This document shows positions 4,049 to 23,940 of a stretch of DNA of 64,000 bases, one piece after another (the stretch's first letter is position 1; every line of letters starts with the position of its first letter). The notes under the pieces are model-generated. The model had not been told where the DNA came from. It saw only the letters and a program-made list of their open reading frames with translations, and ran no database searches. Where the stretch lies: assembly GCA_963832165.1 (NCBI GenBank), contig CAWHTE010000004.1, positions 674,889 to 738,888 on the forward strand. Reading direction: 5' to 3'. A program made the translations under genes and the position numbers. This DNA is from an uncultured delta proteobacterium (GTDB lineage Bacteria > Myxococcota_A > UBA9160 > SMWR01).

Positions 4049-5380
4049 ATGGCGACTCGCGAGCGATACATCGACGACGACGCGGGGCAGGGCATCTTCC
4101 GCGTGTGCCGACGGGCGTTCCTCGATCCGGACGTGCTCGCGGCCGAGCGCGAGCGGATCTTCGACCACGCCTGGCTCTATCTCGGGCACGAGTCCGAGGT
4201 GGCCGCGCCGGGTGATTTCCGCACGCGCGAGCTGGGCGCGCGCCGGATCGTGTTCGTGCGCGGCAAGGACCGCGCCGTGCGCGCGCTGCTCAACTCGTGC
4301 ACACACCGCGGTGCCGAGGTGTGCCGCGAGCGCTCCGGGAACGCGCGGAGCTTCCAGTGCTTCTATCACGGCTGGACGTTCGGCAACGACGGGCGGCTGA
4401 TCGGCGTGCCCGGCGACGAGGCCTACGCGCCCGGCTTCTCGCGCGAGCGGCTCGGGCTGCGCGAGGCGCCGCGGCTCGAGCAGTACCGCGGCTTCTATTT
4501 CGTGAGCTTCGATCCCGAGATCGTCCCGCTGCGCGAATACCTCACGGGCGCGGCGGAATATCTCGACCTCATCGTGGACCAGTCCGAGCTCGGCATGGAG
4601 ATCGTGGGCGGCACGCAGTCGTATGCGATCAATGCGAACTGGAAGCTGCTCGTCGAGAACAGCTACGACGGCTACCACGCCAACGTCGCGCACGCGCGCT
4701 ACCTGAAGTGGCTCGCGTCGACCGGAGCGGTCGGGCTGCCGCGTGGCACGACCTGGAACCGCGCGCGCTCGCTCGGCAACGGGCATGCCGTGGTCGAGTA
4801 CACCGCCGCGTGGGGGCGCCCGATCGCGCACTGGGTGCCGTCTTTCGGCGAGGACGCCGCACCCGAGATCGCGGAGATCCGCGCGAAGCTCGAGGAGCGG
4901 CTGGGTGCCGAGCGCGCGCACCGGATCGCCACGACGAGCCGCAACCTCGGGATCTTCCCCAATCTCGTCGTGAACGACATCATGGCGATCACGGTTCGCA
5001 CGTTCCATCCGATCGCGCCCGGGCGCATGCATGTGGAGGCGTGGTCCCTCGCACCGCGCGGCGAGGCGCCCGCGCACCGCAAGCACCGGCTCGAGAACTT
5101 CCTGACCTTCCTGGGCCCCGGCGGGTTCGCGACACCCGACGACATCGAGGGCCTCGAGTCGTGCCAGCGCGCCTACCAGGGAACGCCCGAGGACTGGAAC
5201 GACCTGTCCCGCGACGCGCTGAGGCCCGACCCGCCGATCACGGGCGAGCACCAGATGCGTACGTTCTGGCGACACTGGCAGGAGCGCATGACGCCGCAGA
5301 AGGCGCTCGAGGAGGCGCGCCAGCAAGTTTCGCGCAGCGAGCCAAAGGCGAGCGGAGACCAGCAGTATGCAGCCGGTTAG
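4049..5380 (+). CDS. Rieske aromatic ring-hydroxylating dioxygenase, alpha subunit
   Basis: Rieske CTHRG..CFYHGW; NWK..ENSYDGYH..VAH; DDIE mononuclear iron ligands. Confidence 0.92.
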   Translation: MATRERYIDDDAGQGIFRVCRRAFLDPDVLAAERERIFDHAWLYLGHESEVAAPGDFRTRELGARRIVFVRGKDRAVRALLNSCTHRGAEVCRERSGNARSFQCFYHGWTFGNDGRLIGVPGDEAYAPGFSRERLGLREAPRLEQYRGFYFVSFDPEIVPLREYLTGAAEYLDLIVDQSELGMEIVGGTQSYAINANWKLLVENSYDGYHANVAHARYLKWLASTGAVGLPRGTTWNRARSLGNGHAVVEYTAAWGRPIAHWVPSFGEDAAPEIAEIRAKLEERLGAERAHRIATTSRNLGIFPNLVVNDIMAITVRTFHPIAPGRMHVEAWSLAPRGEAPAHRKHRLENFLTFLGPGGFATPDDIEGLESCQRAYQGTPEDWNDLSRDALRPDPPITGEHQMRTFWRHWQERMTPQKALEEARQQVSRSEPKASGDQQYAAG

Positions 5381-5882
5381 TGCGATCACGGCGCTTCCGG
5401 CCGCCGATCTCACGCGCGGCGAGATCGAGGACTTCCTCTACGAAGAGGCGGCGCTGCTCGACGAGTGGCGGCTCGCCGAATGGCACGCGCTGTTCACGGA
5501 GGACGCGACCTACCGGGTTCCCTCGACCGACGTGCCGGATGCCGACCCGGAAGACACCCTGTTCCTGATCGACGACGACGCGGCGCGGCTGCGCTCGCGC
5601 GTCGAGCAGCTGCTCGGCAAGTCGACCTGGTCCGAGAACCCGCACTCGCGCACGCGGCGGCTCGTCACGAACGTGCGGATCCGCAAGACCGAGGGCGCGC
5701 GCGCGTGGGTGACGGCGAACTTCGCCGTCTACCGCATGCGCACGAACCAGGTCGCCACCTACGTGGGGCGCTACGAGTACGTGCTCGAGCGCCGCGGGGA
5801 CGGCCTGCGCATCGAGCAGCGACGCGCAGTCCTCGATCTCGAATCGCTGCGCGACGTCGGCAAGATCAGCTTCATCCTCTAA
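5367..5882 (+). CDS. Ring-hydroxylating dioxygenase, beta subunit
   Basis: EDFLYEEAALLDEWRL.EW; SENPHSRTRRLVTNV; follows alpha subunit. Confidence 0.9.
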   Translation: MQPVSAITALPAADLTRGEIEDFLYEEAALLDEWRLAEWHALFTEDATYRVPSTDVPDADPEDTLFLIDDDAARLRSRVEQLLGKSTWSENPHSRTRRLVTNVRIRKTEGARAWVTANFAVYRMRTNQVATYVGRYEYVLERRGDGLRIEQRRAVLDLESLRDVGKISFIL

Positions 5883-5897
5883 AGGAGAACTTCAACC

Positions 5898-6677
5898 ATG
5901 GATCTGGGCATCGCGGGGCGCCGCGCGATCGTGTGCGGCGGCAGCAAGGGGCTCGGGCGCGGCTGCGCTGCGGCGCTCGCGCGCGAGGGCGTTCACGTCT
6001 GGATCGCCGCGCGGTCGGCCGAGGCGCTCGAACAGACCGCGCGCGAGCTCACGCGCGCAACCGGCTCCGTCGTCGACACCGTGTGCGCCGACGTGGCAAC
6101 GCCGGAAGGGCGGGCGGCGATTCTCGCCGCGTGCGCGGACCCCGACATCCTGATCAACAACGCGGGCGGGCCGCCGCCGGGAAACTTTCGCAGCTGGTCG
6201 CGCGAGGATTGGATCCGCGCGCTCGACACGAACATGCTCTCGGCGATCGAGCTGATCCGCGAGACGCTCGACGGCATGATCGAGCGCCGCTTCGGCCGCG
6301 TCGTGAACATCACGAGCCACATGGTCAAGTCGCCGGTCGCCTTCCTCGGGCTCTCGAACGGTGCGCGCGCGGGGCTCACGGGCTTCGTGGGCGGTCTCGC
6401 ACGCGACGTCGCCGCGCACAACGTCACGCTGAACAACCTGCTTCCGGGCGCGTTCGACACCGACCGGCTGCGCTCGAATCAGGAGAAGCTGGCCGCGGGG
6501 CGCAAGGTCGACGTCGAGGACGTGCGCGAGCGCATGCGCGAGCAGATCCCGGCGCGGCGCTTCGGAACCCCCGACGAGTTCGGCGCCGCGTGCGCATTCC
6601 TGTGCAGCGCGCACGCGGGGTACATCACGGGCCAGAACCTGCTGCTCGACGGCGGGCAGTTCCCGGGGCTGCTCTGA
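5898..6677 (+). CDS. SDR oxidoreductase
   Basis: GGSKGLG, INNAGGPPPG, YITGQNLLLDGG. Confidence 0.9.
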   Translation: MDLGIAGRRAIVCGGSKGLGRGCAAALAREGVHVWIAARSAEALEQTARELTRATGSVVDTVCADVATPEGRAAILAACADPDILINNAGGPPPGNFRSWSREDWIRALDTNMLSAIELIRETLDGMIERRFGRVVNITSHMVKSPVAFLGLSNGARAGLTGFVGGLARDVAAHNVTLNNLLPGAFDTDRLRSNQEKLAAGRKVDVEDVRERMREQIPARRFGTPDEFGAACAFLCSAHAGYITGQNLLLDGGQFPGLL

Positions 6678-7933
6678 GGCTCCCCGACGACGCCGCGCGC
6701 GCGATCGCCGATCCGCGCTCGTACGCGGAGTGGGACCGCCTGCACGAGACGCTGGCGCAGGTACGGCGCGAGTGGCCGTTCGCACGCGCCGAGCTGCCCG
6801 AGTACCCGCCGTTCTGGGTCGCCTCGCGGCTCGCCGACATCCGCGAGGTCGCGAGCCGGCACCGCGAGTTCCTGTCGGGACAGGGTGGCCTGTTGACGCG
6901 CGAGCAGCTCGCGTCCGAGCGGAGCCGCGGCGCAGGGCAGCTGTTCCGCTCGATCGTGGTGATGAACGAGCCCGAGCACGCGAAGTACCGCGACCTGACC
7001 CAGAGCTGGTTCCAGCGCGCGCCGCTGCGGCGCTTCGAGCCGCAGATTCGCGAGCTCGCGCGCCGGCACGTCGAGCGGCTCGCCGCGCTCGGCGGCGAGT
7101 GCGATTTCGCCCAGGAGATCGCGGCGCACTATCCGCTGCTGGTCGTGCTCGCGATCCTGGGCGTGCCCGAGGAAGACGAGCCGTTCATCCTGCGCCTCAC
7201 GCGCGAGTACTTCGGAAACGCCGACGACGAGCTGAACCGCGGCCAGGTGAAGCGCTCGCCGGTCGAGGCGATCGCGTCGACGCGCGCCGTGATCGAGGAG
7301 GCCACGAAGTACTTTGCCGAGCTCTCGGCGCAGCGCCGGCGCGCGCCGCGCGACGACCTCGCGTCGGTGGTCGCGAACAGCCGGATCGACGGCGAGCCCG
7401 TCTCCGACGTCGATGCGATGGGCTACTTCGTCACGGTCGCGTTCGCGGGACACGACACCACGTCGTCCTCGGTCACGGGCGCGATCTGGGCGCTCGCCGA
7501 GCGGACCGATCAGCTCGCGCGCGTGCAGCGCGATCTCGCGCTGGTGCCGAGCCTCGTCGAGGAGGCCGTGCGCTGGACGACGCCGATCCACATGTTCGTG
7601 CGCCGGGCCGCGGTCGATGCGGAGGTCGCGGGCCAGCGCGTGGCGAAGGGCGAGCGCGTGGTGCTGTGCTTCCCGTCGGGCAATCGCGACGAGGAGGTGT
7701 TCCCGGACCCGTTCGAGTTCCGGGCCGATCGCCAGCCCAATCGCCACGTCGGGTTCGGGTTCGGCGCCCACGCGTGCCTGGGCGTGCACCTCGCGCGGAT
7801 CGAGATGGGGATCCTGTTCGAGGAGCTGCTGCCGCGGATCGCGTCGCTCGAGCTCGCGGGCGAGCCCAGGCGCACCGTGACGAACTTCGTCGGGGGTCCC
7901 AAGTCGCTGCCCGTGCGCGTGCGCCTGCGCTGA
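6674..7933 (+). CDS. Cytochrome P450 (apparent CTG start)
   Basis: AGHDTT, EEAVRW (ExxR), FGFGAHACLG heme motif. Confidence 0.9.
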   Translation: MRLPDDAARAIADPRSYAEWDRLHETLAQVRREWPFARAELPEYPPFWVASRLADIREVASRHREFLSGQGGLLTREQLASERSRGAGQLFRSIVVMNEPEHAKYRDLTQSWFQRAPLRRFEPQIRELARRHVERLAALGGECDFAQEIAAHYPLLVVLAILGVPEEDEPFILRLTREYFGNADDELNRGQVKRSPVEAIASTRAVIEEATKYFAELSAQRRRAPRDDLASVVANSRIDGEPVSDVDAMGYFVTVAFAGHDTTSSSVTGAIWALAERTDQLARVQRDLALVPSLVEEAVRWTTPIHMFVRRAAVDAEVAGQRVAKGERVVLCFPSGNRDEEVFPDPFEFRADRQPNRHVGFGFGAHACLGVHLARIEMGILFEELLPRIASLELAGEPRRTVTNFVGGPKSLPVRVRLR

Positions 7934-7972
7934 TCGCGCCCGCTACTCTGCGCGCAGGAGGGAAGCGTCCCC

Positions 7973-8977
7973 GTGCAATACGTCACTCTCGGCTCCACCG
8001 GCATGAAGGTGTCGCGGCTGTGCCTGGGCTGCATGAGCTACGGCACGCCTTCGTGGCGGCCCTGGGTGCTCGACGAGGCCGCGTCCGCGCCGTTCTACCG
8101 CCGCGCGGTCGAGGCCGGGATCAACTTCTTCGACACCGCGGACATGTACTCGCTCGGCGAGAGCGAGGTGGTGACGGGCCGCATGTTGCGCGAGTACGCG
8201 GTCCGCGACGAGGTCGTGATCGCCACCAAGGTGTTCTTTCCGCACAACGACCGGCCGAACATGGGCGGGCTCTCGCGCAAGCACATCCAGCAGGCGTGCG
8301 AGGCGAGCCTGCGCCGGCTCGGCGTCGAGGCGATCGACCTCTATCAGATCCACCGGCTCGATCCCCACACGCCGATCGAGGAGACGCTGCGCGCGCTCGA
8401 TGATCTCGTGCGCCAGGGCAAGGTGCGCGCGATCGGCGCGAGCTCGATGTACGCGTGGGAGCTCGGGCGTGCGCTCGCGATCTCCGATCGCGACGGTCTC
8501 GCGCGCTTCGCGACCATGCAGAATCACTACAACCTCGTGTACCGCGAGGAAGAGCGCGAGATGATGCCGCTGTGCGAGTTCGAGGGGATCGCGGTGATGC
8601 CGTGGTCGCCGCTCGCGCGAGGTCTGCTCGCGGGCACGCGCCAGAAGCTCGGCGACGACTCGACGACGCGTTCCGCGAGCGACGGTCTCGACCAGTATCT
8701 CTACGACCAGCCGACCGACTGGGACGTCGTGGAGGCGGTCCGTTCCGTGGCCAAGCAGCGCGGCGTACCGCCCGCCCAGATCGCGCTCGCGTGGCTCGCC
8801 TCGCGGCCCGCCGTGGTCGCGCCGATTCTCGGCGCGACGAAGCTCGCCCACCTCGAAGACGGCCTCTGCGCGCTCGACATCGATCTCGAGCCCGCGGAGG
8901 TCGCGGCGCTCGAATCGCCGTACCGGCCGCATCCCGTGAAGGGGATCGCGCCGAAGTCGAGCATGCGGCGGCGATAG
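7973..8977 (+). CDS. Aldo/keto reductase
   Basis: VSRLCLGCMSYG, FFDTADMY, IDLYQIHRLD, MQNHYNL, PWSPLARG. Confidence 0.92.
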   Translation: MQYVTLGSTGMKVSRLCLGCMSYGTPSWRPWVLDEAASAPFYRRAVEAGINFFDTADMYSLGESEVVTGRMLREYAVRDEVVIATKVFFPHNDRPNMGGLSRKHIQQACEASLRRLGVEAIDLYQIHRLDPHTPIEETLRALDDLVRQGKVRAIGASSMYAWELGRALAISDRDGLARFATMQNHYNLVYREEEREMMPLCEFEGIAVMPWSPLARGLLAGTRQKLGDDSTTRSASDGLDQYLYDQPTDWDVVEAVRSVAKQRGVPPAQIALAWLASRPAVVAPILGATKLAHLEDGLCALDIDLEPAEVAALESPYRPHPVKGIAPKSSMRRR

Positions 8978-8984
8978 GACCACG

Positions 8985-10184
8985 GTGAAGCCGGCCTGGC
9001 TGCGCTCCTTCGCGAACGGGGTGCTCGCGCTCTCTGCGGCCGACGCCGTGGTGTCGGCGATCGACGAGGTGATCCGCGCCGCCACGGGATGGCACGGGCT
9101 CGCGATCCCGCGCAGCGCGATCGCGCAGCTCGCGCTGCTGGGGCTCGCCGCGAGCGTGCCGCTGATGCTCGCGACGCCGCGCCTGCCCGTTGCGGTGTTC
9201 CTGCCGCTCACGGCCGTGACCTTCTGGCTCACGCTCGGCGCAGCGCCACTCGGGCTCTGGATCGGATCGCCCGCGCTGCTCGCGGCGACGGGGTGCGCAC
9301 TCCAGCTCGCGGCCGTGGCGCTCGCCTTCGCGCTGGTCCGCGCGCGAAACGGCGGGCGCGGCAGCTGGTTCACGGACGTGGGACCCGAACAGCCCGCGTT
9401 CGCGTGGCGCCACACGCTCGCGTTCGGCGCCGCGCTCGCTCTGCTGGGCCCGGTCGTGACGGTCGGCTACGCCGCGCTCGCGCTCGCCACGTATGCCCAG
9501 GATGCCACGAACGGCTTCATCCAGTTCGGTCTCGCGGGTGTCTCGCTCGCCGACCGCCACTACGAGCGCGACGGCCGCGAGATCCGGCTCGTCGGCATGA
9601 TGCACATCGGCGATGCCGAGAGGTACCGCTCGCTGATCCGCTCCTTTTCGCGCGAGTCGACGATCGTGCTCGCGGAAGGCGTCTCCGACCGCGAGGCGCG
9701 TCTCGGTAGCTCACTGCACTACGGTCGCGCTGCGGAGGCGATCGGGCTCGCTCCCCAGCAGGATCTGACCGCCTATCTCGTCGACGACCCGGGGGCCGAG
9801 CCGCCGAAGTGGCCCGTCGTGCGTTATGCCGATGTCGACATGAGCGAGTTCTCGCCGGCGACGATCGCGTGCATCCAATGGGCGAGCCGGGTCTGGGAGG
9901 CCGAGGACCTGCGCAGCGCGCTGCTCGTGCTCGCGCGCGGCGTGCGCGAGCAGGATCCGGACGATCTCGCGACGTTCGAGGCCGAGGTGCTCGGGATGCG
10001 CAACGAACATCTCGTGGGCGAGATCGAGCACGCGCTCGAGGAGTATCAGCGCGTCGTCGTGCCCTGGGGTGCGCTGCATCTGCCTGCGATCGAGGAGGCC
10101 GTGCTGTCGTGGGGCTTCGCGGAGACCTCGCGCGAGCTGCACCCGCTCTTCGAGTGGCGCACGGTGGCCGCTGCGCTGTTCTGA
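8985..10184 (+). CDS. Hypothetical membrane protein with TraB/GumN-like C-terminal domain
   Basis: Several N-terminal TM segments; LVGMMHIG, LAEGV, MRNE, PWGALHLP motifs. Confidence 0.55.
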   Translation: MKPAWLRSFANGVLALSAADAVVSAIDEVIRAATGWHGLAIPRSAIAQLALLGLAASVPLMLATPRLPVAVFLPLTAVTFWLTLGAAPLGLWIGSPALLAATGCALQLAAVALAFALVRARNGGRGSWFTDVGPEQPAFAWRHTLAFGAALALLGPVVTVGYAALALATYAQDATNGFIQFGLAGVSLADRHYERDGREIRLVGMMHIGDAERYRSLIRSFSRESTIVLAEGVSDREARLGSSLHYGRAAEAIGLAPQQDLTAYLVDDPGAEPPKWPVVRYADVDMSEFSPATIACIQWASRVWEAEDLRSALLVLARGVREQDPDDLATFEAEVLGMRNEHLVGEIEHALEEYQRVVVPWGALHLPAIEEAVLSWGFAETSRELHPLFEWRTVAAALF

Positions 10185-10187
10185 ATT

Positions 10188-10321
10188 CGTAGGGCGGGAG
10201 GAGCCGCAGGCGGATCCCGCCATCGCGACGTTCCGCTCCCCTGGCATGGCGGGATCCGTCCGCCTGCGCATCTCCGACACCATCGCGAATGGCCGGGGAG
10301 GGGGGCTTCTCCCGCCCTACG
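10188..10321. repeat. GTAG-type REP/REPIN element between convergent genes
   Basis: Terminal inverted repeats CGTAGGGCGGGAG / CTCCCGCCCTACG; internal GGATCCCGCCAT / ATGGCGGGATCC; related copy at 30119-30182. Confidence 0.8.
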
Positions 10322-10326
10322 AAGGA

Positions 10327-11829
10327 TCAGGCGCCGCGCTCGATCTTGACGACGAAGGCGTGCTCGCTCGTCGTTGCGAGGGATTGAGTGCCGCCGGCGG
10401 GCATGGTGATCACGAGCTGACCGAGAAGGTTCCGCTTGTACGCGAGCGGTGCGCCGTTTCCGCCGAGCAGCGTCATGCGCGCGCCCTTCGGCACCGGGAT
10501 CGGCAGCGTCACCGTCATCTGCTTGCCCGGCCAGGCCGTCGACGTCACGTAGAAGACGTCACCCTTCGTGGTGAAGCGCAGGTTGAACTCTTCGGCGAAG
10601 GTCCAGGGCCGGGTGCCGTAGATCGCCTCGCCGTTGAGGGCGAGCCAGCGGCCGACGCCCCGCAGGCGCTCGGCCTGGGCTTCGGGCACGGTGCCGTCGG
10701 CCTTCGGGCCGATGTTCAGCAGGAAGTTCCCGTTCTTCGACACGATGTCGACGAGCGAATCGACGATCTCGTTCGTCGTGAGCCAGTCCGCCTCGGTCTC
10801 CTGCTCGGTGTAGCCGAACGAGCTGCCGAAGCCGCGGGTCGCCTCCCACTTGCGCGCCTGCAGCAGGTTGACCGGCAGATACTCCTTCGTCTGGAAGTCG
10901 AAATGGGTGGTGTCGGTCGGAGCGTCGAGCACGAAATCGCCGCAGCGGTCGTTGACGACGACGCCTTCCGGGTTCGCGGTGGTCGCATGGTTGTAGTACT
11001 CGGCGATCCACTCGTTCGAGCGGTAGTACTGCTGGTTGCCGCCGATGTCGCACCAGAGGACGTACGGGCTGTACTGGTGGATCAGCTCGCGGATCTGCGG
11101 GATCACGTGATCGGTCGCGTAGTCGGCGATCGGCTTGTAGCCGGTGTAGGGCGCCGGCGTGCCCGTGTATGCGTTCTTGGCCTTGCCGCGGAACGCGAGC
11201 AGCTCGATCGCCGCCGTCAGCGGACTCGTCGACAGGCTCGGGTTCGGCGCAGGATTGAAGAACTCGGGGATCGAGTAGTAGAGGCCGGGCTTCACGACAT
11301 CGCCGCGAGCGTGCGAGGCGTCCATGAGCTCGCCGACGAAGTTGCGCCCGGGGCCGTAGTTCACCGTGTGGCGGTCGGTCGTCGCGGTCGGAAACAGCGC
11401 GAGCCCGTCATGGTGCTTCGTGACGAAGACGAAGTAGCGCGCGCCGGCATCCTCGAAGAGGTCGATCCACTCGTTGGCGTCGAAGTTCTCCGCCTGCCAT
11501 TGCGGAATGAAGTCGTCGTAGAGGACGTTCGGACCGTAGGTCGAGAGATGGTGCGACCAGGCCGGAGACAACTTCTGCTGCTGGAAGAACCAGTACCACT
11601 CGGCGTAGCCGATCACCGGTACGCCCTTGGTCGCATAGGCGGGAATCGCCGCGGCGGTCCAGTGGATGAAGATTCCGAACTTGCCGTCCTGGTACCACGC
11701 GGGGACCGGATGCGTTCGCAGCGACGCAAGCGTCGGCTGATACACCGGATCCGCCGCCGCGGTCGCGCCGGTGAGTCCGGCGGCGAAGAGCCAGGACACG
11801 AGCAGCGCAACACCGATCCGGTTCGTCAT
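10327..11829 (-). CDS. Alpha-L-fucosidase (GH29), secreted
   Basis: Signal peptide; PAWYQDGKFGIFIHW, YAEWY, VTKHHDG, LWCD, NGNFLLNIGPKADG. Confidence 0.92.
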   Translation of the reverse strand: MTNRIGVALLVSWLFAAGLTGATAAADPVYQPTLASLRTHPVPAWYQDGKFGIFIHWTAAAIPAYATKGVPVIGYAEWYWFFQQQKLSPAWSHHLSTYGPNVLYDDFIPQWQAENFDANEWIDLFEDAGARYFVFVTKHHDGLALFPTATTDRHTVNYGPGRNFVGELMDASHARGDVVKPGLYYSIPEFFNPAPNPSLSTSPLTAAIELLAFRGKAKNAYTGTPAPYTGYKPIADYATDHVIPQIRELIHQYSPYVLWCDIGGNQQYYRSNEWIAEYYNHATTANPEGVVVNDRCGDFVLDAPTDTTHFDFQTKEYLPVNLLQARKWEATRGFGSSFGYTEQETEADWLTTNEIVDSLVDIVSKNGNFLLNIGPKADGTVPEAQAERLRGVGRWLALNGEAIYGTRPWTFAEEFNLRFTTKGDVFYVTSTAWPGKQMTVTLPIPVPKGARMTLLGGNGAPLAYKRNLLGQLVITMPAGGTQSLATTSEHAFVVKIERGA

Positions 11830-11894
11830 GAGGCCTCCGCCGGGCGCAGCATACGCGAAGCGGGCCGCCCGACGGAGCTAGTTCGCTGAGCTAA

Positions 11895-13463
11895 CTAAGA
11901 CTCGCCGATCACGCCGCCGTCGCGCAGGCGGTGCTTCTGCACCTTGCCCAGCGCGTTGCGCGGCAGCACCTCGACCGCATGCAGCAGGCGCGGCTGCTTG
12001 TAGGGCGCGAGCCGGTCCGCGAGGAACGCGCGCAGCTCGGCGAGATCGGGCGGAGCAGGGCCCTCGACGTAGGCCGTCACCACCTCGCCCCATTCCGGCG
12101 ACGGCGTCCCGACCACCGCGGCGTCCGCGATCGCGGGATGCGCGCGCAGCGCGTCCTCGACCTCGCGCGGGTACACGTTGTAGCCGCCGCTGATGATGAG
12201 CTCCTTCGCGCGGCCCGTGATCCGCAGATAGCCGGCCGGATCGAGCTCGCCGAGATCGCCCGTGCGGAACCAGCCGTCGGGTGTGAACGCCTCCGCGTTG
12301 GCGTCGGGACGCTCCCAGTAGCCCGCGAACACGTTCGGGCCGCGCACCTCGATCTGCGCGGGTGAGCCAGCCCGATGGTCTTCGCTCGCCTTCGGCTCGC
12401 TGCGCGCAACTTGCGTTAGTCGCACCTCGACGCCGGGCAGCGGCAGCCCGACCGTGCCGGGCCGGCGCTCGCCGTCGACGGGGTTCGACACCAGCATCAC
12501 GGTCTCGGTCATGCCGTAGCGCTCGAGTATGCGCTGGCCGCACGCGCGCTCGAACTCCGCGTGTTGGTCCGCGGGCAGTGCGGCCGAGCCCGACACGCAC
12601 AGGCGCAGCGCGCGCAGCGCGTGCGCGTTCCCGGATGCGAGGATCCGGTGGTACATCGTGGGCACGCCGAAGAAGAGCGTTGCACGCGCGCGCGCGATCG
12701 CGCTCGCAACCGCATCCGGGTCGAATTGCGGCAGGAGCCACGCCGACGCGCCCGCATGGAGCGTGCCGTGCAGGCCCACGCCGAGCCCGTGCATGTGGAA
12801 GAGCGGCAGCGCGAGCACGAGGCGATCGTCGGCGGTCCAGCGCCACGCGATCCGCAGCGACTCGGCGCTCGCGAGCAGGTTCGCGTGCGAGAGCACGGCG
12901 CCCTTCGGGCGGCCCGTCGTGCCGGACGTGTAGCCGATCAGCGCGGGCGCATCGGGCGCGGCGGCGTCGAGCGCAGGCGGCTCCGCGTCGGGAAACGCGA
13001 GTGCGGGCGTCGTGCACAGCAGTGCGCGATCGGCCGCGCGCAGCGCGTCGATGCGCGCGGGATCGTCCGCGATCGCGGCGCGCGGGCGCGCATCGCCCAC
13101 GAGGTGGGCGAGCTCGGCCGCGCGATAGGCGGTGTTCGCGGGCACCACGACGAGCCCGAGGCGCAGACACGCGACGTGCGCCACGACGAGATCGAGCGAC
13201 GCCGCGGCCGAAACGAGCACGCGGTCGCCCGCGCGCAGACCCGCGCCGTGGAGGCGGCCGGCCGCGCGCCGGCTCGCCGCGTCGAGCGCGCCGTAGCTCT
13301 GCTCGTCGCCGCGCTCGTCGCAGAGCGCCACGCGGTCGCTCGCGCGCGCGAAGTGACGCGCCCAGCTGCGCGGCAGCGTTCCGGCGCCGCCCGCGGTGGG
13401 ATCGAATGCGGTGCCATCTTCGTAGGGCGGATTAGCGCGAAGGGCGTAATCCGCCAAATCCAA
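11895..13463 (-). CDS. Acyl-CoA synthetase (MatB/malonyl-CoA synthetase-like)
   Basis: YTSGTTGRPKG, ERYGMTET, FRTGDLG, LPRNALGKVQK. Confidence 0.9.
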   Translation of the reverse strand: MDLADYALRANPPYEDGTAFDPTAGGAGTLPRSWARHFARASDRVALCDERGDEQSYGALDAASRRAAGRLHGAGLRAGDRVLVSAAASLDLVVAHVACLRLGLVVVPANTAYRAAELAHLVGDARPRAAIADDPARIDALRAADRALLCTTPALAFPDAEPPALDAAAPDAPALIGYTSGTTGRPKGAVLSHANLLASAESLRIAWRWTADDRLVLALPLFHMHGLGVGLHGTLHAGASAWLLPQFDPDAVASAIARARATLFFGVPTMYHRILASGNAHALRALRLCVSGSAALPADQHAEFERACGQRILERYGMTETVMLVSNPVDGERRPGTVGLPLPGVEVRLTQVARSEPKASEDHRAGSPAQIEVRGPNVFAGYWERPDANAEAFTPDGWFRTGDLGELDPAGYLRITGRAKELIISGGYNVYPREVEDALRAHPAIADAAVVGTPSPEWGEVVTAYVEGPAPPDLAELRAFLADRLAPYKQPRLLHAVEVLPRNALGKVQKHRLRDGGVIGES

Positions 13464-13466
13464 CCG

Positions 13467-14693: not shown

Positions 14694-14716
14694 CCGATCT
14701 CTCGCGCTAGCGCGGA

Positions 14717-15103: not shown

Positions 15104-15234
15104 GATGCCTCCCTAGCAAGATCGGACCGCTTCGCGTCACCGCGCGACCTGGGCGCGGGGAGCTCAACGATAGCCACTCAGGCCGGAACTCGGCCTGGAC
15201 GCAAAGGCGAGGTAGGAGCCGCAGCGGTGAGTGA

Positions 15235-15498
15235 TCACGCAAGCAGCGCATCGTGCCATTCTCGGATCGAATAGGACTTGACGAGGCCCTCGAGGGCAAA
15301 GGGGTCCTGGCTGACAAACGCCTCGGCTGCTTCCCGCGTCCGGAAGATCGCCATGTTGCCGCGGTTCTCGAACGGGCCGATGCCGATGACGTCCCCGCGC
15401 GCGATGAACTGATCGACCAGCTCCTTGTGGCGCGGGTAGACCGCCATGATCTGGTCCATCGTCGCACCCGAGGGTTCACCGATCACGACGAATTTCAT
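15235..15498 (-). CDS. YciI-like protein
   Basis: GIGPF..GNMAIF..EAAEAFVSQDPFALEG..YSIREW. Confidence 0.8.
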   Translation of the reverse strand: MKFVVIGEPSGATMDQIMAVYPRHKELVDQFIARGDVIGIGPFENRGNMAIFRTREAAEAFVSQDPFALEGLVKSYSIREWHDALLA

Positions 15499-15522
15499 GG
15501 CTGTCCTCCACGTGGGCTGACG

Positions 15523-16580: not shown

Positions 16581-16597
16581 GGTGTGAAGGGCTACTG

Positions 16598-17053
16598 TTA
16601 GGCGGCGGTGAACGTGCATAGATGGTCCTGGCGGATGACCCCCACGTGGATGAGGCCCTGAGACTCGTGAATCGTGCATCCGATCTGGTACGGCCATCGA
16701 GACCCCACGACGAAGTCGAAACTCGCCCGGTCGGGAACGAAACGGTGAGTTTTCGTAGGGATGCCGATGACGGCCTGAACCTGCGCAAGGGACATTCCGG
16801 ACTGAAGCGGAAGCTGGATCGCGGCTAGAACCCGAGCGCTCAGTGCTTCGGGGAGCTCGCGTAGATCGAGCTCGATGGATCCGAGTGTGTCCGGAGAGGC
16901 TTCAGGGCACAGGAAGGCGGTGAATCCGTCGGCTTCGCCGACCCAGACAGCCCCCATGAACTCCCAGTTGAGCAGCGTGGCGATCCGAGAGGCGTCGGGA
17001 TGGAACTGAGAGAGACGCAAGCGCTCGAAGTGCTCGTAGGGAATCAGTTCCAT
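16598..17053 (-). CDS. Hypothetical cassette-like protein
   Basis: ORF MELIPYEHF..; stop lies within GCCTAAC (R''-type core). Confidence 0.6.
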   Translation of the reverse strand: MELIPYEHFERLRLSQFHPDASRIATLLNWEFMGAVWVGEADGFTAFLCPEASPDTLGSIELDLRELPEALSARVLAAIQLPLQSGMSLAQVQAVIGIPTKTHRFVPDRASFDFVVGSRWPYQIGCTIHESQGLIHVGVIRQDHLCTFTAA

Positions 17054-17099
17054 GGCTCGCGAAGGTCTGTCCACCGCTGCACATTGTATTAAGCACTTG

Positions 17100-17534
17100 C
17101 TAGACGGCGGCCTCTGCGTTCCCGTCGCGTAGCCCATAGAAAAGCAGCCCACAGAGGGCGATGATGGCGATGCCGGCGGTGACGAGTCCGACTCCGATGA
17201 CTCCCTGAAACGGCGTACCCCGAACAGCACCGGCAGCCAGCGGAAGCATCGTGGCACCGGCGCCCCAGATCCCGCCGAGAAGCGGCATCAGCGAGGCAAC
17301 GAAGAAGGAGTAGGGACCGAGCCAGAATGCAAGCCGAGACGCACCCGCTCCCAGCCGGAGGTGGGGCCAGACGAGCCCGAACGCGAGAAGAAAGAGAGCT
17401 CCGACCACCGCATTGACGTGGGCTGCGACGCCGAGGCGAGGCACCGCGAGTGCCGGAATCGCCAGCCCGATGAGGAGACCCACAAACAGCAGCGCGACAC
17501 CAAGTCGCAGGAGGCGGCGATCCGGATCTGTCAC
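17100..17534 (-). CDS. Small multi-TM protein resembling styrene-oxide-isomerase-like family
   Basis: GVALLFVGLLIG..PRLGVAAHVNA..GLVWPHLRL; four hydrophobic segments; RBS GAGGGAG. Confidence 0.55.
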   Translation of the reverse strand: MTDPDRRLLRLGVALLFVGLLIGLAIPALAVPRLGVAAHVNAVVGALFLLAFGLVWPHLRLGAGASRLAFWLGPYSFFVASLMPLLGGIWGAGATMLPLAAGAVRGTPFQGVIGVGLVTAGIAIIALCGLLFYGLRDGNAEAAV

Positions 17535-17587
17535 GGATTTCTCCCTCGTAGTGGAGCGCGCTTGGCTCGGCAGCCGCAGCGCCTTGC

Positions 17588-18216
17588 GCGGCGGATTCGC
17601 GAACCGCGGATTCGAGCTTCGGGAGAAACTCCCGAAGCAGTTCCCGCAAGCTGTCTGACATGGTGACTCGCATCGCCTGCTTGATGAAACCCGCACTCGA
17701 GCCCGTGTACTCGGCATCCGCATCGGTAACGACTCGATCCACGCGTTCTGCCAAGAGGGTCCTCTCGCCTTCTCGGAGCGTGAATTCCAGAGAGGTGATG
17801 CCGGCCACACGGATGAATAGGAAGCCGACCGCCTGGGAGCAAAAGGCGCGAACCCTGCTTTCCAGCGTGAGAGGCGGCGACACCGTGGTCGCAGTATGGA
17901 CCTTTGAGAACAGGCCTGAGTTCTCGATCTCGCGCGCAAGCTCATCTTGAATGATGCGACTTGCTGCGTCACCCCAGAACGTATCGCTTCGACATCCCGT
18001 CCAACGGGTCGAGGCTACGGGCTCACCATAGTGATCTTTCCGAGAGTCAACGGGCAACGGTACATAGAGGACACGGTGATCTCGGTGCTGGGAACGAAAG
18101 CCCGAGTCGGTGTGATGAAAGGTGCCGGCCGCCCCTGGAACCCGGGCCGCACCTCGGTTGCAGGCGACTACCGACATGAGAACGATCGCAGCAATACGGA
18201 CGCACACGATGTTCAT
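17588..18216 (-). CDS. Hypothetical lipoprotein cassette; stop codon apparently lost inside a degraded attC
   Basis: Lipobox-like VVAC; ATG follows GTTAGGCGGC core; 3' end runs into an attC-like left arm. Confidence 0.55.
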
Positions 18217-18368
18217 TGCATTCCGCCGCCTAACTCTTGATGGACTGCGTCCTCCGGGCATCCAACGCCGCGACGAACCGCAGCCGATTGTAATTGCGGG
18301 AAGACGGGGTCGGGAGCTTTCCGTCTGAAACGTCTATCCGCTCCGTGGCCGAGGGGGTAGAGTCGGTT

Positions 18369-19421
18369 GTGCGGTGGCTCCCGGCCCGTCTCCTCGCCGG
18401 CTTCGCGACGCTCGTGGCGTCGGTCGCTTCCGCCAACCCCTGGTCCACGCGCGCGCCGCTGCTCGAGGCGGTGCAGGAGGTCGCGGTCGCCGAACTCGGC
18501 GGCAAGGTCTACGTGGTGGGGGGCCTCCAGGGCACCGCGATCCTGAACCGGGTCGAGGTCTGGGACCCGGTCGCCGATGCCTGGAGCTATGTCGCGACAC
18601 TCCCGATCCCGCTCCACCACACGACGGCGACGGCCGTCGGCGGCAAGCTCTACGTGATCGGGGGCTGGCCCAACTTCTTCGCCACGCCGACCGCCCGCGT
18701 CTTCGCCTACGACCCGGGCGCGAACTCGTGGACGGAGAAGACGTCGATGCCGACTGCGCGCGGCTCGCCGGCGGCCGCCGCCGTGGGCGGGAAGATCTAC
18801 GTCGCGGGCGGCGACCCCGGCGCGACCGACTTCGCCGTCTACGATCCGGTCCTGAATACGTGGCAATCGCTTCCGGCGATGCCAACCGGGCGCCAGCACC
18901 TCGCCGCCGTGGGAATCGGCGGGCGCTTCTACGCGATCGCAGGTCGCACGAGCCTCGGCGCCGGCCAGGACAACGTCGCCGCCTTCGAGGTCTACGACCC
19001 GGGCACGGGCCTGTGGAGCGCCCTTGCCCCGATCCCGACGGCGCGGAGCGGCCTCGCGGCCGCCGTCGCGCACGATCGCTACGCCGTGGTCCTTGGCGGC
19101 GAGGGCAACGACGCGAGCCCGTCCGGCGTCTTCGGCGAGGTCGAGGCCTACGACACCGTCGCGGGTCAGTGGATCGGGCTCACGCCGATGCCGACGCCGC
19201 GGCACGGGATCGGCGCCGCGAGCCTCGGCCGCCGCATCCACGTGCCGGGGGGAGGTCCGCAGGAAGGCTTCGGCCTGAGCGCCGTCCACGAGGTCTACGA
19301 TTCGAGCCAGGAGTTCGTCGCGCCCCCCATTCCTGCGCTCGGGGCGGCGGGCCTGCTCGCGCTCGCCCTGGCACTCGCGGGCGCGGGGCTGCTCGTCGTG
19401 CGCGCGCGGGGCTCGCGCTAG
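18369..19421 (+). CDS. Kelch-repeat protein with IPTL-CTERM tail
   Basis: Repeated GGKxYVxGG...YDP...W; C-terminal PPIPALG + TM + RARGSR. Confidence 0.85.
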   Translation: MRWLPARLLAGFATLVASVASANPWSTRAPLLEAVQEVAVAELGGKVYVVGGLQGTAILNRVEVWDPVADAWSYVATLPIPLHHTTATAVGGKLYVIGGWPNFFATPTARVFAYDPGANSWTEKTSMPTARGSPAAAAVGGKIYVAGGDPGATDFAVYDPVLNTWQSLPAMPTGRQHLAAVGIGGRFYAIAGRTSLGAGQDNVAAFEVYDPGTGLWSALAPIPTARSGLAAAVAHDRYAVVLGGEGNDASPSGVFGEVEAYDTVAGQWIGLTPMPTPRHGIGAASLGRRIHVPGGGPQEGFGLSAVHEVYDSSQEFVAPPIPALGAAGLLALALALAGAGLLVVRARGSR

Positions 19422-19451
19422 GCGAGTATTCAGCAGCTCGCCCCGGCCTCA

Positions 19452-19967
19452 CTAGGCGGCAGGCTCGAGGATGAGGGCCATAGGGAGGGCGTCCACGAAG
19501 GCGCCATCGACCTCGACTGCCCCGCGGCGGCATCCCTCTACCACGAAACCCTTTCGCTCGTAGAGCCGACGCGCTCTGGGATTGTTCGAAAGAACCTCGA
19601 GCTCCAGTCTTCGGATCGATCGATGCTTCGCCCATGTGATCGCGGCGTCTAGAAGTCGAGACCCAATGCCTTGACCTCGGTAGGGCGCGAGCACGGACAT
19701 GCCAAGACTTGCCCCGTGAGCGGTTTGCGGACGCTCGTGGTGCGCCGCTACTCCAAGATTCGCAACGATGCGGTCGCCGATTGTCGCTACGAAGAATTCC
19801 GCGTGCTCCCCTGCGAATTGGCGAATGAAGGCAGTTTCTTCCTCTAGCGTCGGGACGCTGTCGTAGCGGAAGATTGTTGGTAGGCGTTCCGCACGGAGAG
19901 CCGTAACGTAGTCAATGAGTGCGGGTACGTCGCGCTCTCCGGCACTACGGATCGTGATCGTAGGCAT
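19452..19967 (-). CDS. GNAT N-acetyltransferase (cassette gene)
   Basis: GMSVLAPYRGQGIGSRLL, LEVLSNNPRARRLYERKGF. Confidence 0.88.
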   Translation of the reverse strand: MPTITIRSAGERDVPALIDYVTALRAERLPTIFRYDSVPTLEEETAFIRQFAGEHAEFFVATIGDRIVANLGVAAHHERPQTAHGASLGMSVLAPYRGQGIGSRLLDAAITWAKHRSIRRLELEVLSNNPRARRLYERKGFVVEGCRRGAVEVDGAFVDALPMALILEPAA

Positions 19968-19975
19968 TCCCTGTC

Positions 19976-20110
19976 GCATAACGGACCGGCGCTTAGCTGC
20001 GAGCCACAGTGCCTCCGCAGCCGGTTCGAAGCGCCCGAGGTCGATGCGAAACGGTACCATGGATCGATTGGAACGCGCTGTGGCTCGGCAGCTGCAGCGG
20101 CTTGTTGAGC
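19976..20110 (-). other. Integron attC site
   Basis: Minus strand GCTCAAC-AAGCCGCTGCAGCTGCCGAGCCACAG ... CTGTGGCTCGCAGCTAAGCGCCGGTCC-GTTATGC; imperfect palindrome with R''/R' cores. Confidence 0.85.
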
Positions 20111-20154
20111 GGCGGGCCGCTCGACCTGTCTACTACTACGGAGAGATCTGTCGG

Positions 20155-20750
20155 ATGTCGGAATCTGCAGATCAACACCCTCCGATCCGGGCGCCGCTTG
20201 GCGATGTGATGACCGATCGGCTCGAGCTTCGGAAATTCCGCTCGGAGATCTCGATGAGCTGGCGGTAGTGTTCGAGAAGCCCGAGGTCTGGAGGTTTCCG
20301 TACGGGCGGGGCTTCACGCGCGAGGAGACAGCTGCCTTTTTGGAGACGCAACTCGCGGAGTGGAGCACCTGTGGATTCGGGTGCTGGCTCGCTCGGGAAC
20401 GCAAGAGCGATCGAGTCGTCGGCTACGTAGGACTATCCGTTCCGGTCTTTCTTCCTGCGATTCTGCCCGCCGTGGAGGTTGGATGGCGCTTCGATCCCGG
20501 GGTCTGGGGCAGGGGTTATGCGAGCGAAGGTGCACGTGCCGCCCTCGCAGAGGCATTTGCCACACTGGGACTGAGCGAGGTCTGCTCGGTTCCCCAGGCA
20601 GACAATCCGGCGTCGAGCCGAGTCTGCGAGCGTCTTGGGATGCGCTTTGAGCGGGAGGTAGTGATACCAGCCAACGCGCGGCGAGGGATGCTTGCGGGCC
20701 TGCTCTACAAGATGTCGCGAGCTGCATGGTCGGCAGCGGTTCAGGGTTGA
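20155..20750 (+). CDS. RimJ/RimL-type GNAT acetyltransferase, frameshift near 20245, inverted within its cassette
   Basis: TDRLELRKF, VEVGWRF, WGRGYASEGA, NPASSRVCERLGM. Confidence 0.82.
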
Positions 20751-20791
20751 ACCGCTTCTTGCGCTGCGCCTCCACCTCGGTCGTTCCCGCC

Positions 20792-20907
20792 GCCCAACGT
20801 CTGGCCGCTAAGCTGCGGCCGCGCGCGATGCTACCAAGACCCGTGTTGGCTCAGGCCACCCGTCGAACTTGAAGCCCGTGGCCGGCAGCTTCAGCGGCTT
20901 GTTGGAC
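20792..20907 (-). other. Integron attC site
   Basis: Minus strand GTCCAAC-AAGCCGCTGAAGCTGCCGGCC ... GGCCGCAGCTTAGCGGCCAGAC-GTTGGGC, 9 nt after the FAD oxidoreductase stop. Confidence 0.85.
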
Positions 20908-20916
20908 GGCGCCACA

Positions 20917-22282
20917 CTACACCGTTGGTCTGACATTGTTGTTCAGGTGGAACAAGTTCGTCGGATCGAGCCTGTTCTTCAGCGCGACGAGCCGTGCGTA
21001 GTTCGGCCCGTACGCGTGCTCGACCGCGCCTTCGGTCTCGTCCTCGGTCTGGTAGTTCACGTAGGACTCGCGGGCCATGTGGGGGCGCAGCGCATCGTAG
21101 GTGGCGCGCGCCCACGCGATGTTCTTCTCGTCGTCCTTCGGGTCGAGCCACTGGGAGACGACCAGCAGGTTGTAGCTCTCGCGCCGGTGAGGGAACGCCG
21201 TCTCGCCGACGCCGACCCGTGCGGCGGCCCCATGGAAGTGCTCGAGAACGAGCCCGCTCATCGGCGAGGGGCAGACCGCGAACTGCGCGATGAGCGCGTC
21301 GATCGCCTCGTCGCTGAGTTCCGCGAGGAAGCTCGACTTCCAGTAGTTCCTCGCACCGCGGGGGAAGCCCGGGTCGAAGAGCTTCGTGTTCGTGTCCACG
21401 TAGCTCGCGGGGCCGATGGTGTCGACCACGGGCGACCGAACCGCTTGATCGGCCGGGTCGCCGCTTCGCCCTCGGCCAGCGAGCCGCAATGACACGCGAC
21501 GATCGCCGCCAGAGGTACGCCCGAGCCGTCGGGGGCGATGCAACAGTCCACCGTAGAGCGTGAGCTCGTCGGGCACGGAAGAGGTGACCTCGCGGAAGAA
21601 CTGCAGCACGTCGCGCGCGCGTTCAATAGGGTGGGCCACGAGGCCGCTCGTGACCGGCCCCACCGGATGCAGCCGGTACTCGAACCACGAGACCACGCCG
21701 AAGTTCCCTCCCCCGCCCCGCAGCCCCCAGAACAGATCGCGGTCTCCCTCGGCGCTCGCCCGCACGACGTCGCCCGCAGCGGTGACGACCTCCGCAGAAA
21801 TCAGGTTGTCGGCGGCGAGCCCGTGCTTGCCCATGAGCCAGCCGAGCCCGCCTCCGAGCGTAAGACCCGCGATTCCGGTCGTCGAGACGACGCCTCCGGT
21901 CGTGGCGAGGCCATGGAGCTGGGTCTCGCGGTTAAACTCGCCCCACGTCACGCCTCCCTGGGCGCGCACCGTGCGGTGCCCGGGATCGACGTGGATGCCC
22001 TTCATCAGCGAGAGGTCGAGCATCAACCCGCCTTCGCAGACGGACTTCCCCGCGACGCTGTGACCGCCGCCGCGGACGGCGAGCTCGAGTTCGTGCGTGC
22101 GCGGCGAATCGAACGGCGTCAATGACATCGGCGGTCCCGAGGCAGCGAGCGATCAGGGCCGGACGGCGGGCGAACATGCCGTTGTGGATGCGACGCACTT
22201 CGTCGTAATCAGCGTCGGTGGGCGTGAGGACGCCGCCGCGCAGGCTGGCCCGGAGATCGTTGAGCGCTGCTTCCTTGACCAT
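20917..22282 (-). CDS. FAD-binding oxidoreductase (berberine-bridge/VAO family), frameshifted
   Basis: VRGGGHS, GIAGLTLGGGLG, LRGGGGNFGVV, YVNY..RLVALKNRLDPTNLF. Confidence 0.88.
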
Positions 22283-22449
22283 GGGTTTCCTCCTCTCTCA
22301 GCCCGCAACCGGCTTTGCCAGATCGCTGCTTGGCGCCGTCCAACTGTTAATGGATTGCGAGCCCGATGGTAAACGCTGCGAGAGCTCGCAGCCTATTTGC
22401 TGGGTCGCGGTGGAGAGGTTCGGAAATCGCGTTGCTGGGGGCGATCCGC

Positions 22450-22469
22450 AACTGGATTTGAATCCAGTT
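22450..22469. promoter_or_regulatory. Palindromic operator, LexA-box-like (CTG-N10-CAG)
   Basis: AACTGGATTTGAATCCAGTT, about 105 bp upstream of the first cassette core. Confidence 0.5.
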
Positions 22470-22707
22470 CGGGGAGCAAACGCTTGCGAACGTGCGAAGG
22501 CGTCGGGTTACGCCGAGGCGCGTCGGTGCCCGTGGGAGATCGAGGGAAAACAACGGGTTGGCGGCGAGGCGTCGTGCGGCCCCGGCGGGTCCCCGGCGGC
22601 GCGTGACCGCCTTCGTTTTCAGCGCGTGAGGCTCCTGCGGGGAAACGCCAGGATCGCCCAGGCGGGGCGATCGGCGGCCGGCCGTCTCCGAATGGCGGGG
22701 CGCCTTG

Positions 22708-23940
22708 CTAGCGGTAGCGGTTCCAGACCGCTTCGCGGCGGCGCGCGAGCTGTGCGCGCCGCGCTTCGGGCGTCACCGTGGGATGGTCGGGCGGCATCGC
22801 CTTGCGCACGGCGTCGAGCGACACCACGTGTGCGCGCGGTACCGGATTGGTGCGCGCCCACACCCAGCGGTACACGAGCAGGCCGCGCTGTCTCTCTTCG
22901 GTGTCGATCCAGTTCGGTGTCGCGGGATCGCGATGCGCGACGACGATCCGGATCACGCCATCGCCGTCGACGTGGGTCTGATGATCGTTCAGGCTGATCT
23001 GGCGGCGATCGAACTCGCCGGTCTCGAGCCAGGGCAGGGTGTGGGTGACGAAGTTCCAGTAGTCGGCGTCGGGTCGCTCGACCTCGAGCACGAGCGCCTC
23101 GTCGGGCTCGAGATTCCAGAAGCAGCTCCCGTACAGGATGTTGTCCGCGCCTCCGGGGGCGCTGCGCGCCGCGGCGGCCGCGTTCGGCGTCGCACGCGCC
23201 CAGCCCTGGCCCGTGTAGCGGCTCCAGTAGTCGACCGACGCCTCCACCCAGCGCGCGGTGCGCTCGAGCGCCGCCGCGAGCGCGCCCGGGTCGAGCAGCG
23301 GACGCGGCTCGCCCTCGGCGCCGACGCGCTCGATCTGGAAGATCGGCAGCACGTCGCGCTCCCAGTCGGACTGGTACAGACGGATCGTGAAGATGCGCGC
23401 GCGCGGATCCAGCTCGATGCAGTGCCCCTCGCCCACTCGATGGTCTTCGCTCGCCTTCGGCTCGCTGCGCGAAACTTGCGCAGACCCCTTCGGCACGAGC
23501 CAGATCTCGAGGCCGCCGTCGCTCGCGAGCGGCAGCTGGTCGAGCGAGCGCTCGCCGAACACGCCGTACTCGGAGAGCTGCATGTCGCCCTCGTGCAGCG
23601 AGAAGATCGCCTGGCGCAGGCCGCGCGCGTCGCGCGTCCACACGCGATAGGCGAGGCTCGGGTCGACGTTCGCGCGCAGGTAGATGTTGTCGGGGTTGGG
23701 GCCGCCCCACTGGTTCCAGGGGTTCTGATGGCTCACGAAACCCGGGAAGCGCGGATCGCCGGCTTCGATCTCCTGCTGCGCGGCGTAGATCAGCCAGCGC
23801 ATGACCGCGCGGTAGCCCTCGCTGCGCGCGCGCGGGTCCGCGAAATCGCCGCTCTGGAGCCGCTCGCCGATCGCCTCGAGGCGGCTGCAGAACGCGCGCC
23901 ACGCGGAGCCGTCGAGCAGCGCAGCGCCGGCGTCGGACAT
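22708..23940 (-). CDS. DUF1214-like protein (type usually paired with sulfotransferases)
   Basis: WGGPNPDNIY, LEPDEALV, DGDGVIRIVVAHRDP..NWIDT. Confidence 0.75.
   Translation of the reverse strand: MSDAGAALLDGSAWRAFCSRLEAIGERLQSGDFADPRARSEGYRAVMRWLIYAAQQEIEAGDPRFPGFVSHQNPWNQWGGPNPDNIYLRANVDPSLAYRVWTRDARGLRQAIFSLHEGDMQLSEYGVFGERSLDQLPLASDGGLEIWLVPKGSAQVSRSEPKASEDHRVGEGHCIELDPRARIFTIRLYQSDWERDVLPIFQIERVGAEGEPRPLLDPGALAAALERTARWVEASVDYWSRYTGQGWARATPNAAAAARSAPGGADNILYGSCFWNLEPDEALVLEVERPDADYWNFVTHTLPWLETGEFDRRQISLNDHQTHVDGDGVIRIVVAHRDPATPNWIDTEERQRGLLVYRWVWARTNPVPRAHVVSLDAVRKAMPPDHPTVTPEARRAQLARRREAVWNRYR

Follow-up and report, generated by a model that had tools for sequence, protein, structure and literature searches.

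Small repeats that settle inside protein-coding genes without breaking them are known from several bacterial systems. The Rickettsia palindromic elements (RPEs) lie in frame in unrelated genes (PMC10969869), and intragenic in-frame copies of repetitive extragenic palindromes (REPs) are on record from Opitutus terrae, Thauera and others in the papers on GTAG and CGTC REPs (PMC3733652, PMC8266576, PMC6006769). TnpA-REP enzymes work on a single strand in folded form and are able to recognise a G within a three-nucleotide loop (PMC8266576). Mycobacterial interspersed repetitive units (MIRUs) are known to insert at start codons (PMC12548453). Here we describe a repeat of 42–45 nt that occurs three times in a 64,000-nt stretch (the window) of contig CAWHTE010000004.1 from an uncultured delta proteobacterium (assembly GCA_963832165.1, source genome G000), each time within a different gene. 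Since in-frame selfish repeats are known from RPEs and intragenic REPs, the three copies alone are unsurprising. Taken over the genome, the repeat is very probably a selfish element that carries its peptide as a passenger, and its conserved feature is the shape of the DNA, not the peptide.

Three in-frame copies and their family

A 23-nt core, searched with up to three mismatches, has exactly three matches in the window (mean 0.01 and maximum 1 in 100 shuffles). An earlier note on this DNA had located copies at these three sites; the 42-nt units, each with G as the first base, begin one base earlier than given there and occupy 5323-5364 (+), 12414-12373 (-) and 23479-23438 (-). As the note held, all three are in sense orientation, share one frame and leave their open reading frames (ORFs) unbroken. 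The copies and their host genes are as follows.

5323..5367, + strand: first repeat copy, the 42-nt unit (5323-5364) with 3 nt more; it adds a net 15 codons to the Rieske alpha subunit's tail
4049..5380, + strand: host gene 1, encoding the alpha subunit (443 aa) of a ring-hydroxylating dioxygenase (PF00355, PF00848)
12370..12414, - strand: second repeat copy, the 42-nt unit (12414-12373) with 3 nt more; it adds a net 15 codons to a predicted loop between two strands
11895..13463, - strand: host gene 2, encoding a MatB-type (malonyl-CoA synthetase) acyl-CoA synthetase, with its start codon unsettled (PF00501, PF13193)
23438..23479, - strand: third repeat copy, the 42-nt unit by itself; it adds a net 14 codons to a predicted loop between two strands
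22708..23940, - strand: host gene 3, DUF1214-domain protein, 410 aa (many homologues with PF06742 or the name DUF1214)

In translation, the Rieske alpha subunit contains QVSRSEPKASGDQ, the AMP-binding enzyme QVARSEPKASEDH and the third protein QVSRSEPKASEDH. Of the host families proposed earlier, Pfam confirms the Rieske alpha subunit and the acyl-CoA synthetase; the third protein itself has no Pfam or NCBIfam match, but its homologues are of the DUF1214 type. Homologues of the first host carry the name p-cumate 2,3-dioxygenase alpha, and the nearest solved structures to the second are 4gxq, 4fuq and 4fut.

Aligned with orthologs, the hosts show clean insertions, and nearly all orthologs are without the peptide. 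At copy 2 the acyl-CoA synthetase is 15 residues longer than its orthologs in the relatives G003, G004 and G005 and 16 longer than that in G001; at copy 3 the DUF1214 protein exceeds its orthologs in G003-G005 by 14 residues. Three of 120 DUF1214 proteins among the matches listed, the query included, have the peptide, a fourth having been discounted as a spurious fuzzy match. In the two other bearers the insert sits a few residues earlier in the same loop, and because of this different position the loop must have been struck more than once. For the Rieske protein metagenomic homologues were compared, as no ortholog of the alpha subunit was found in G002-G006 at 1e-60. The peptide is present in three of 120 proteins among the matches listed (query included), one of which holds a second element nested in frame within the first; most other close homologues end in a short E-V-R-H/R-A/V-A-R-like tail with no insert. 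The view that the repeat lands in tolerant loops or termini is in line with the sites, namely one C-terminal tail and two loops. In the AlphaFold models, the predicted local distance difference test (pLDDT) score is below 50 at residues 354-365 at copy 2 and averages 51 at residues 161-170 at copy 3 (whole-model mean 93), and both copies are predicted to lie in floppy, low-confidence loops between strands. The solved MatB structure likewise has a loop at the site of copy 2.

The genome-wide count that the earlier note called for comes to about 190 copies in G000: a 22-nt core occurs 137 times exactly, 171 times at one mismatch and 187 times at two (0, 2 and 14 for the reversed control). The unit measures 42-45 nt and the net insert 42 or 45 nt, sometimes 33-39 nt, and about 60% of the copies (112/187) are intergenic. 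By their heads, 92 of the 187 are of the type seen in the window (type A), 44 have a longer GCAAGGAGG hairpin and 51 are of other kinds. Among 41 relatives the core was found in 28, at 1 to 391 copies (1 to 195 among the congeners), with gaps even inside the genus and the family. A phylum-wide draw of genomes, incomplete to varying degrees, had it in 12 of the 28 that belong to the class and in 2 of 123 others, which bears out a lineage-specific mobile repeat. Named records that match are mostly metagenome-assembled genomes of Myxococcota, some under other submitter labels. No plasmid record covers 80% of the unit, and Rfam has no match within the window. One exact core each was seen on three viral contigs (L277, L278 and L279), where it is possibly proviral or host-derived.

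Sites were compared with the congener G004, for which 1.42 Mb of 3.4 Mb entered the comparison. Orthologous flanks in G004 were found for 47 of 181 G000 clusters, of which 30 were empty, 11 shared, 3 reversed and 3 partial. Starting from G004 instead, 93 of 119 clusters could be compared, with 76 empty, 11 shared, 3 reversed and 3 partial; among the 'empty' rows two, with a net length of 0, are false matches. Given the distribution among relatives and the mostly unshared sites, the family predates the genus and is still turning over. At G000:C5:243211 and G000:C11:597134 the two genomes have the repeat at the same site in opposite orientations, and at G000:C7:653066 they have different subtypes; these are recurrent insertions at hot spots.

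Strand, frame and a probable passenger peptide

Translated copies are undercounted here, because the upstream-coding test used to score them recovers only 1,934 of 3,000 random positions. By this test 53 of 171 copies in G000 are translated, 51 in sense (19 internal, 32 C-terminal) and 2 in antisense. The sense copies are read as RSEPKASE in 26 cases, as AQRAEGERR in 21 and in the third frame in 4. The G004 fragments gave 42 sense and no antisense copies out of 104, with 23, 17 and 2 in the three frames, against 19 sense and 7 antisense of 170 for the GTAG REPs taken as control, some chance coding matches included. Of the strand and frame bias looked for, the strand part is strong (51:2 and 42:0); two frames rather than one are used, about equally. 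The claim of a single constant peptide thus describes the three window copies and does not extend to the genome.

Stop codons do not cause this bias, since five of the six frames are nearly open: of 159 type-A copies, at most 4 contain a stop in any one of these five and 37 do in the sixth, the unit corresponding to 14 codons. The third sense frame is open yet rare (4/51 in G000, 2/42 in G004), which argues for filtering on the peptide. The peptides of the two used frames are polar with charges of -1 and +1, that of the avoided sense frame has a charge of +6, and those of the antisense frames are less polar. Because the open sense frame is avoided about as much as antisense, selection on the peptide can explain most of the intragenic bias. 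Between co-directional genes the sense bias is weaker (52:19). No replication-strand bias was found among the 135 of 171 copies in bins of clear skew (75 leading and 60 lagging, as for genes, p 1.0), and the orientation of copies follows transcription. Net lengths divisible by three were found at 17 of 19 internal sites, as against 29 of 55 untranslated or N-terminal ones, after removal of one false row of length 0 per class; at least one copy frame-shifts the last dozen codons of its gene.

These results bear on the shared peptide tag that the earlier note considered, here taken as selection of QV[SA]RSEPKASEDH for a common function in its hosts. The frame of this peptide is the one used by all three window copies and by 26 of the 51 translated sense copies, and the three separate insertions in one DUF1214 loop all share it. 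However, an unrelated peptide comes from 21 of the 51, about equally often, most copies are intergenic, and 117 of the 120 matches listed in each of the two families lack the peptide. Synonymous variation is not enriched in the RSEPKASE frame (13/72 versus 27/172 in untranslated copies, p 0.71); the weak synonymous excess in the AQRAEGERR frame (27/54 versus 74/209, p 0.06) is not taken as shown. The covarying base pair exchanges P and A residues, so that the commonest variation preserves the DNA pair and alters the peptide. A functional tag is largely refuted by these data and must be considered highly improbable.

DNA shape, insertion sites and mode of spread

The variable stem position is paired in 181 of 187 copies (C-G in 130, G-C in 51, unpaired in 6), the compensatory change expected of a REP-type strand-specific hairpin. 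This covarying stem has only 3 bp and closes a C-GNA-G loop; CG-N-AG is present in 170 of the 187 copies, with all four bases at N, and copy 1 has AAA in place of GNA. An extra upstream hairpin, found with many different stems in 70 of 171 copies, closes a C-GNA-G loop in 42 of them, the genome-wide background among hairpins with three-base loops being 1,118 of 34,122 (3.3%). The core contains GCGCAGC, an unusually stable DNA mini-hairpin, and GCGNAGC mini-hairpins are far more stable as DNA than the RNA counterpart tested (PMC13037366).

We favour, at slightly better than even chances, an account in which a non-autonomous selfish repeat is spread as folded single-stranded DNA by an enzyme acting in trans, most likely of the HUH type. 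One strand would fold into GNA mini-hairpins and be read by a strand-transfer enzyme, most likely a RAYT-like HUH Y1 protein, which would act from elsewhere in the genome and copy the folded strand. New copies would land widely, often in the loops of other hairpin repeats and near gene junctions. Within genes they would persist if they keep the frame, encode one of the two polar, near-neutral peptides and lie in a surface loop or tail, so that selection would leave only harmless copies there and the peptide would be a passenger.

Movement through an RNA copy by reverse transcription would explain the sense orientation, and the tracking of transcription rather than replication and the variable 3' end are compatible with it. 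The three-base loop with its free middle base is, however, the pattern of a DNA mini-hairpin and not of an RNA tetraloop, and neither a target duplication nor, within the window, an Rfam match was found; an RNA route is improbable.

An intact RAYT gene, as the earlier note had advised looking for, does exist in G000 (G000:C4:535321-535956; NF047646, 200 bits against a cut-off of 80), but neither flanking nor co-occurrence ties it to the repeat. It is flanked by dimers of GTAG REPs, and GAGCCGAAGGCG and GCGCAGCGA occur both in the inner hairpins of these REPs and in the repeat; this is the best hint at the chemistry. The gene is probably a recent arrival with its own REP family. Canonical GTAG REPs form a second repeat family with about 140-170 members genome-wide; the window holds six matches of GTAGGGCGG, where 0.39 are expected.

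10189-10320, 13422-13456, 30141-30158 and 62752-62760: GTAG REPs (GTAGGGCGG matches)

At 10189/10320 two REPs form an inverted dimer that follows a stop codon. The REP at 13422-13456 is in antisense orientation inside the acyl-CoA synthetase's longest open frame, at residues ~3-14. Matches to orthologs of this enzyme start at residue 14-19, so that the REP either is a second repeat in frame or lies immediately upstream of the gene's true start.

Several observations weigh against an HUH enzyme as the mobiliser, or against the account as a whole. No repeat copy lies within 5 kb of the RAYT gene, whose protein has no match in 40 relatives, many of them repeat-rich. At E 0.001 a RAYT-family match is missing both from G069, a 100% complete genome with 125 exact copies, and from G080, which is 96% complete and has 66 copies; as repeat-rich relatives show no RAYT, no mobilising enzyme is assigned. 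Across the phylum the RAYT family is matched in 94 of 151 genomes, most of which are without the repeat, and the repeat in only 14. Neither in G000 nor in the compared part of G004 do copies of the repeat flank an enzyme gene. The repeat lacks a GTAG tag and its ends are variable. Nearest-neighbour folding of the whole unit is no better than that of shuffles (z -0.12 to 0.61), and for this reason the unit is read as a chain of tiny hairpins rather than a long palindrome. No target hairpin signal was detected in 93 solo copies against shuffled flanks. Lastly, movement was not seen directly, no empty allele having been found in the same strain. In four DNA sequencing runs there was a depth peak on the repeat, but no long near-identical piece spanned the site from which polymorphism might be judged.

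The wider search covered other gene families. The repeat flanks none of the 12 Y1 HUH genes of G000, and genes with copies on both sides are ordinary metabolic or housekeeping ones, as judged by eye. One of 25 RAYT-like loci held a loose match to the core. Eleven of the Y1 genes in G000, including G000:C2:485111-485863 (~235 aa), form a TIR-type family with GAGGGAAG-type inverted repeats nearby and 6-22 matches in each of seven other genomes of the taxonomic family, and look like a mobile element of the TIRYT type. This family was rejected as mobiliser: the repeat does not flank it, it was not found in G003, G004 and G005 (110-195 copies) and it is present in G015, which has no copies. One of its genes is followed by a hairpin repeat ending in GGATGACA (G000:C3:44607-44690), which may be a CGTC-type REP on the other strand. 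In G000 and five repeat-rich relatives no small single-domain GIY-YIG (Ssn-like) gene was present, PF01541 occurring only in frames of at least 310 aa; a small DUF559 gene was likewise not found.

The insertion sites themselves are informative. Among 92 type-A copies, 23 interrupt the loop of another copy and 4 interrupt loops of GTAG REPs; in two more cases a different subtype's head hairpin is interrupted, once by a clean insertion of 42 nt at C^GAA. Some of the nesting may have been passed on in compound form, so that not all of these are separate events. In the 93 solo copies there is a weak C at the left and a GGNGGG tail at the right, with no signal of target duplication compared with shuffled flanks. 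Head-to-tail arrays of 2-4 units, spaced at 42 or 45 nt, occur at L183:1501-1661, L228, L234 and L026. In L183 an amidohydrolase-like ORF is lengthened at its C-terminus by the four units; what appears to be its G000 counterpart contains a single copy, in the other frame.

Arrays at this spacing, together with ragged ends, half copies and the failure to find a cognate enzyme, would suit a selfish repeat with no dedicated transposase, duplicated and pasted by host slippage, template switching at hairpins and gene conversion; nesting within its own copies could also be driven by homology. Yet local slippage is not enough for the clean 42-nt insertions at sites without similarity to the repeat, the strictness of the rule for pairing and loop points to a protein that recognises the fold, and congeners differ widely in copy number. 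Spread by host recombination is therefore possible but doubtful.

A preference for gene starts is evident as well. With starts taken from our own gene model, an ATG lies within 30 nt downstream on the repeat's own strand in 34 of 166 G000 clusters, as opposed to 4 on the other strand and 5 of 139 GTAG REPs; in G004 the figures are 17 and 1 of 94 clusters. C-terminal copies end in a stop that overlaps a start-like codon in 16 of 28 cases, compared with 1,566 of 4,464 genes (35%; p 0.018). Copy 1 lies on the ATG of the beta subunit, and its surroundings include two further features.

5367..5882, + strand: dioxygenase beta subunit (NCBIfam beta-subunit families, scores below their cut-offs)
5309..5315, + strand: GAGGAGG, putative original ribosome-binding site of the beta subunit

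The start codon of the beta subunit is the insertion point, and the copy ends in the A of its ATG. By its sequence GAGGAGG is likely the original ribosome-binding site, now 45 nt farther from the ATG through the insertion; a GGAG at 5354-5357, within the copy, lies 9 nt ahead of the ATG. Excision of the 45 nt would restore the usual Rieske tail and bring GAGGAGG to six bases before the start.

On such evidence the repeat could be a MIRU-like element that targets start codons and operon junctions, brings a ribosome-binding tail of its own and is tolerated, or kept as a translation-coupling cassette, with internal copies as a side effect. The proximity to ATG codons in both genomes, the G-rich tail, the stop/start overlap, copy 1 on the beta-subunit ATG, the sense bias between co-directional genes and the habit of MIRUs all agree with it. 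However, an ATG start within 30 nt is missing from four in five clusters, a fixed start-stop ORF is absent from the unit, and the starts are those of our own gene model. Retention for a function is further argued against by the fact that most sites are unshared between congeners. Although compatible with the account of a hairpin repeat spread in trans, a MIRU-like role is unlikely.

Comparison with known repeat systems

No description of this family was found in searches of the open-access literature, a point on which the intragenic REP tables of PMC3733652 may bear. Tentatively, the repeat could represent an undescribed, class-wide kind: a chain of GNA mini-hairpins, served by an enzyme that is neither RAYT nor Ssn, entering the exposed non-template strand of transcribed genes with a preference for hairpin loops and start codons, and growing by nesting, so that protein loops and tails become ever longer. 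Across a class of uncultured Myxococcota, hundreds of recent insertions in a genome amount to a natural experiment, mapping the loops and tails that tolerate 14-15 extra residues and the peptides that are purged. They also sharpen the question of how small repeats with no tied transposase, such as CGTC REPs and MIRUs, spread, and the DNA mini-hairpin rule and the link to transcription offer concrete substrates for testing. For annotation, RSEPKASE and AQRAEGERR segments in these proteomes should be regarded as derived from the repeat, not as motifs.

The likeness to RPEs lies in behaviour, both being dispersed, in frame in unrelated metabolic genes with a recurrent peptide, and in many copies intergenic (PMC10969869); in G000, as with RPEs, nearly all orthologs of the host proteins are without the insert. 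RPEs, in contrast, are palindromic and of about 150 bp (PMC10969869), whereas our repeat, of 42-45 nt and with only short stems, lacks self-complementarity and is read in two frames at a strand bias of 51:2; these descriptions set it apart. With the REP/RAYT systems it shares short length, high copy number, a strand-specific hairpin and the absence of target duplication (PMC3733652, PMC8266576, PMC6006769), and with the GTAG REPs of its own genome the inner GNA hairpins. Unlike REPs it has neither a GTAG (or GT[AG]G) tetranucleotide at its hairpin foot nor a CGTC tag, its head being GCAAG, and no long stem, and its copies stand head-to-tail or nested rather than as inverted dimers, do not flank a RAYT gene and lean to gene starts and tails. 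MIRUs are likewise short, of unclear mobility, found in tandem arrays and apparently sparing of host translation (PMC12548453). They sit at start codons, near which our repeat is enriched, although only a fifth of the G000 clusters end near an ATG and many copies lie deep inside genes. By description they have an internal ORF coupled to the downstream gene at -4; our repeat shows no fixed ORF, while its C-terminal copies often end in a stop/start overlap. The Ssn/SRM pairing of a non-HUH single-strand nuclease with a family of hairpin repeats offers a precedent (PMC11893778, SRM/NTS), from which G000 and its repeat-rich relatives differ in having no small GIY-YIG gene. Transposable elements of the miniature inverted-repeat type (MITEs) differ from the repeat in that its two ends are not complementary and its solo copies give no sign of target duplication. 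By the features compared, the repeat falls outside the GTAG REPs, MITEs, RPEs and Ssn/SRM elements; what is new is the family and its anatomy, the phenomenon itself being already known.

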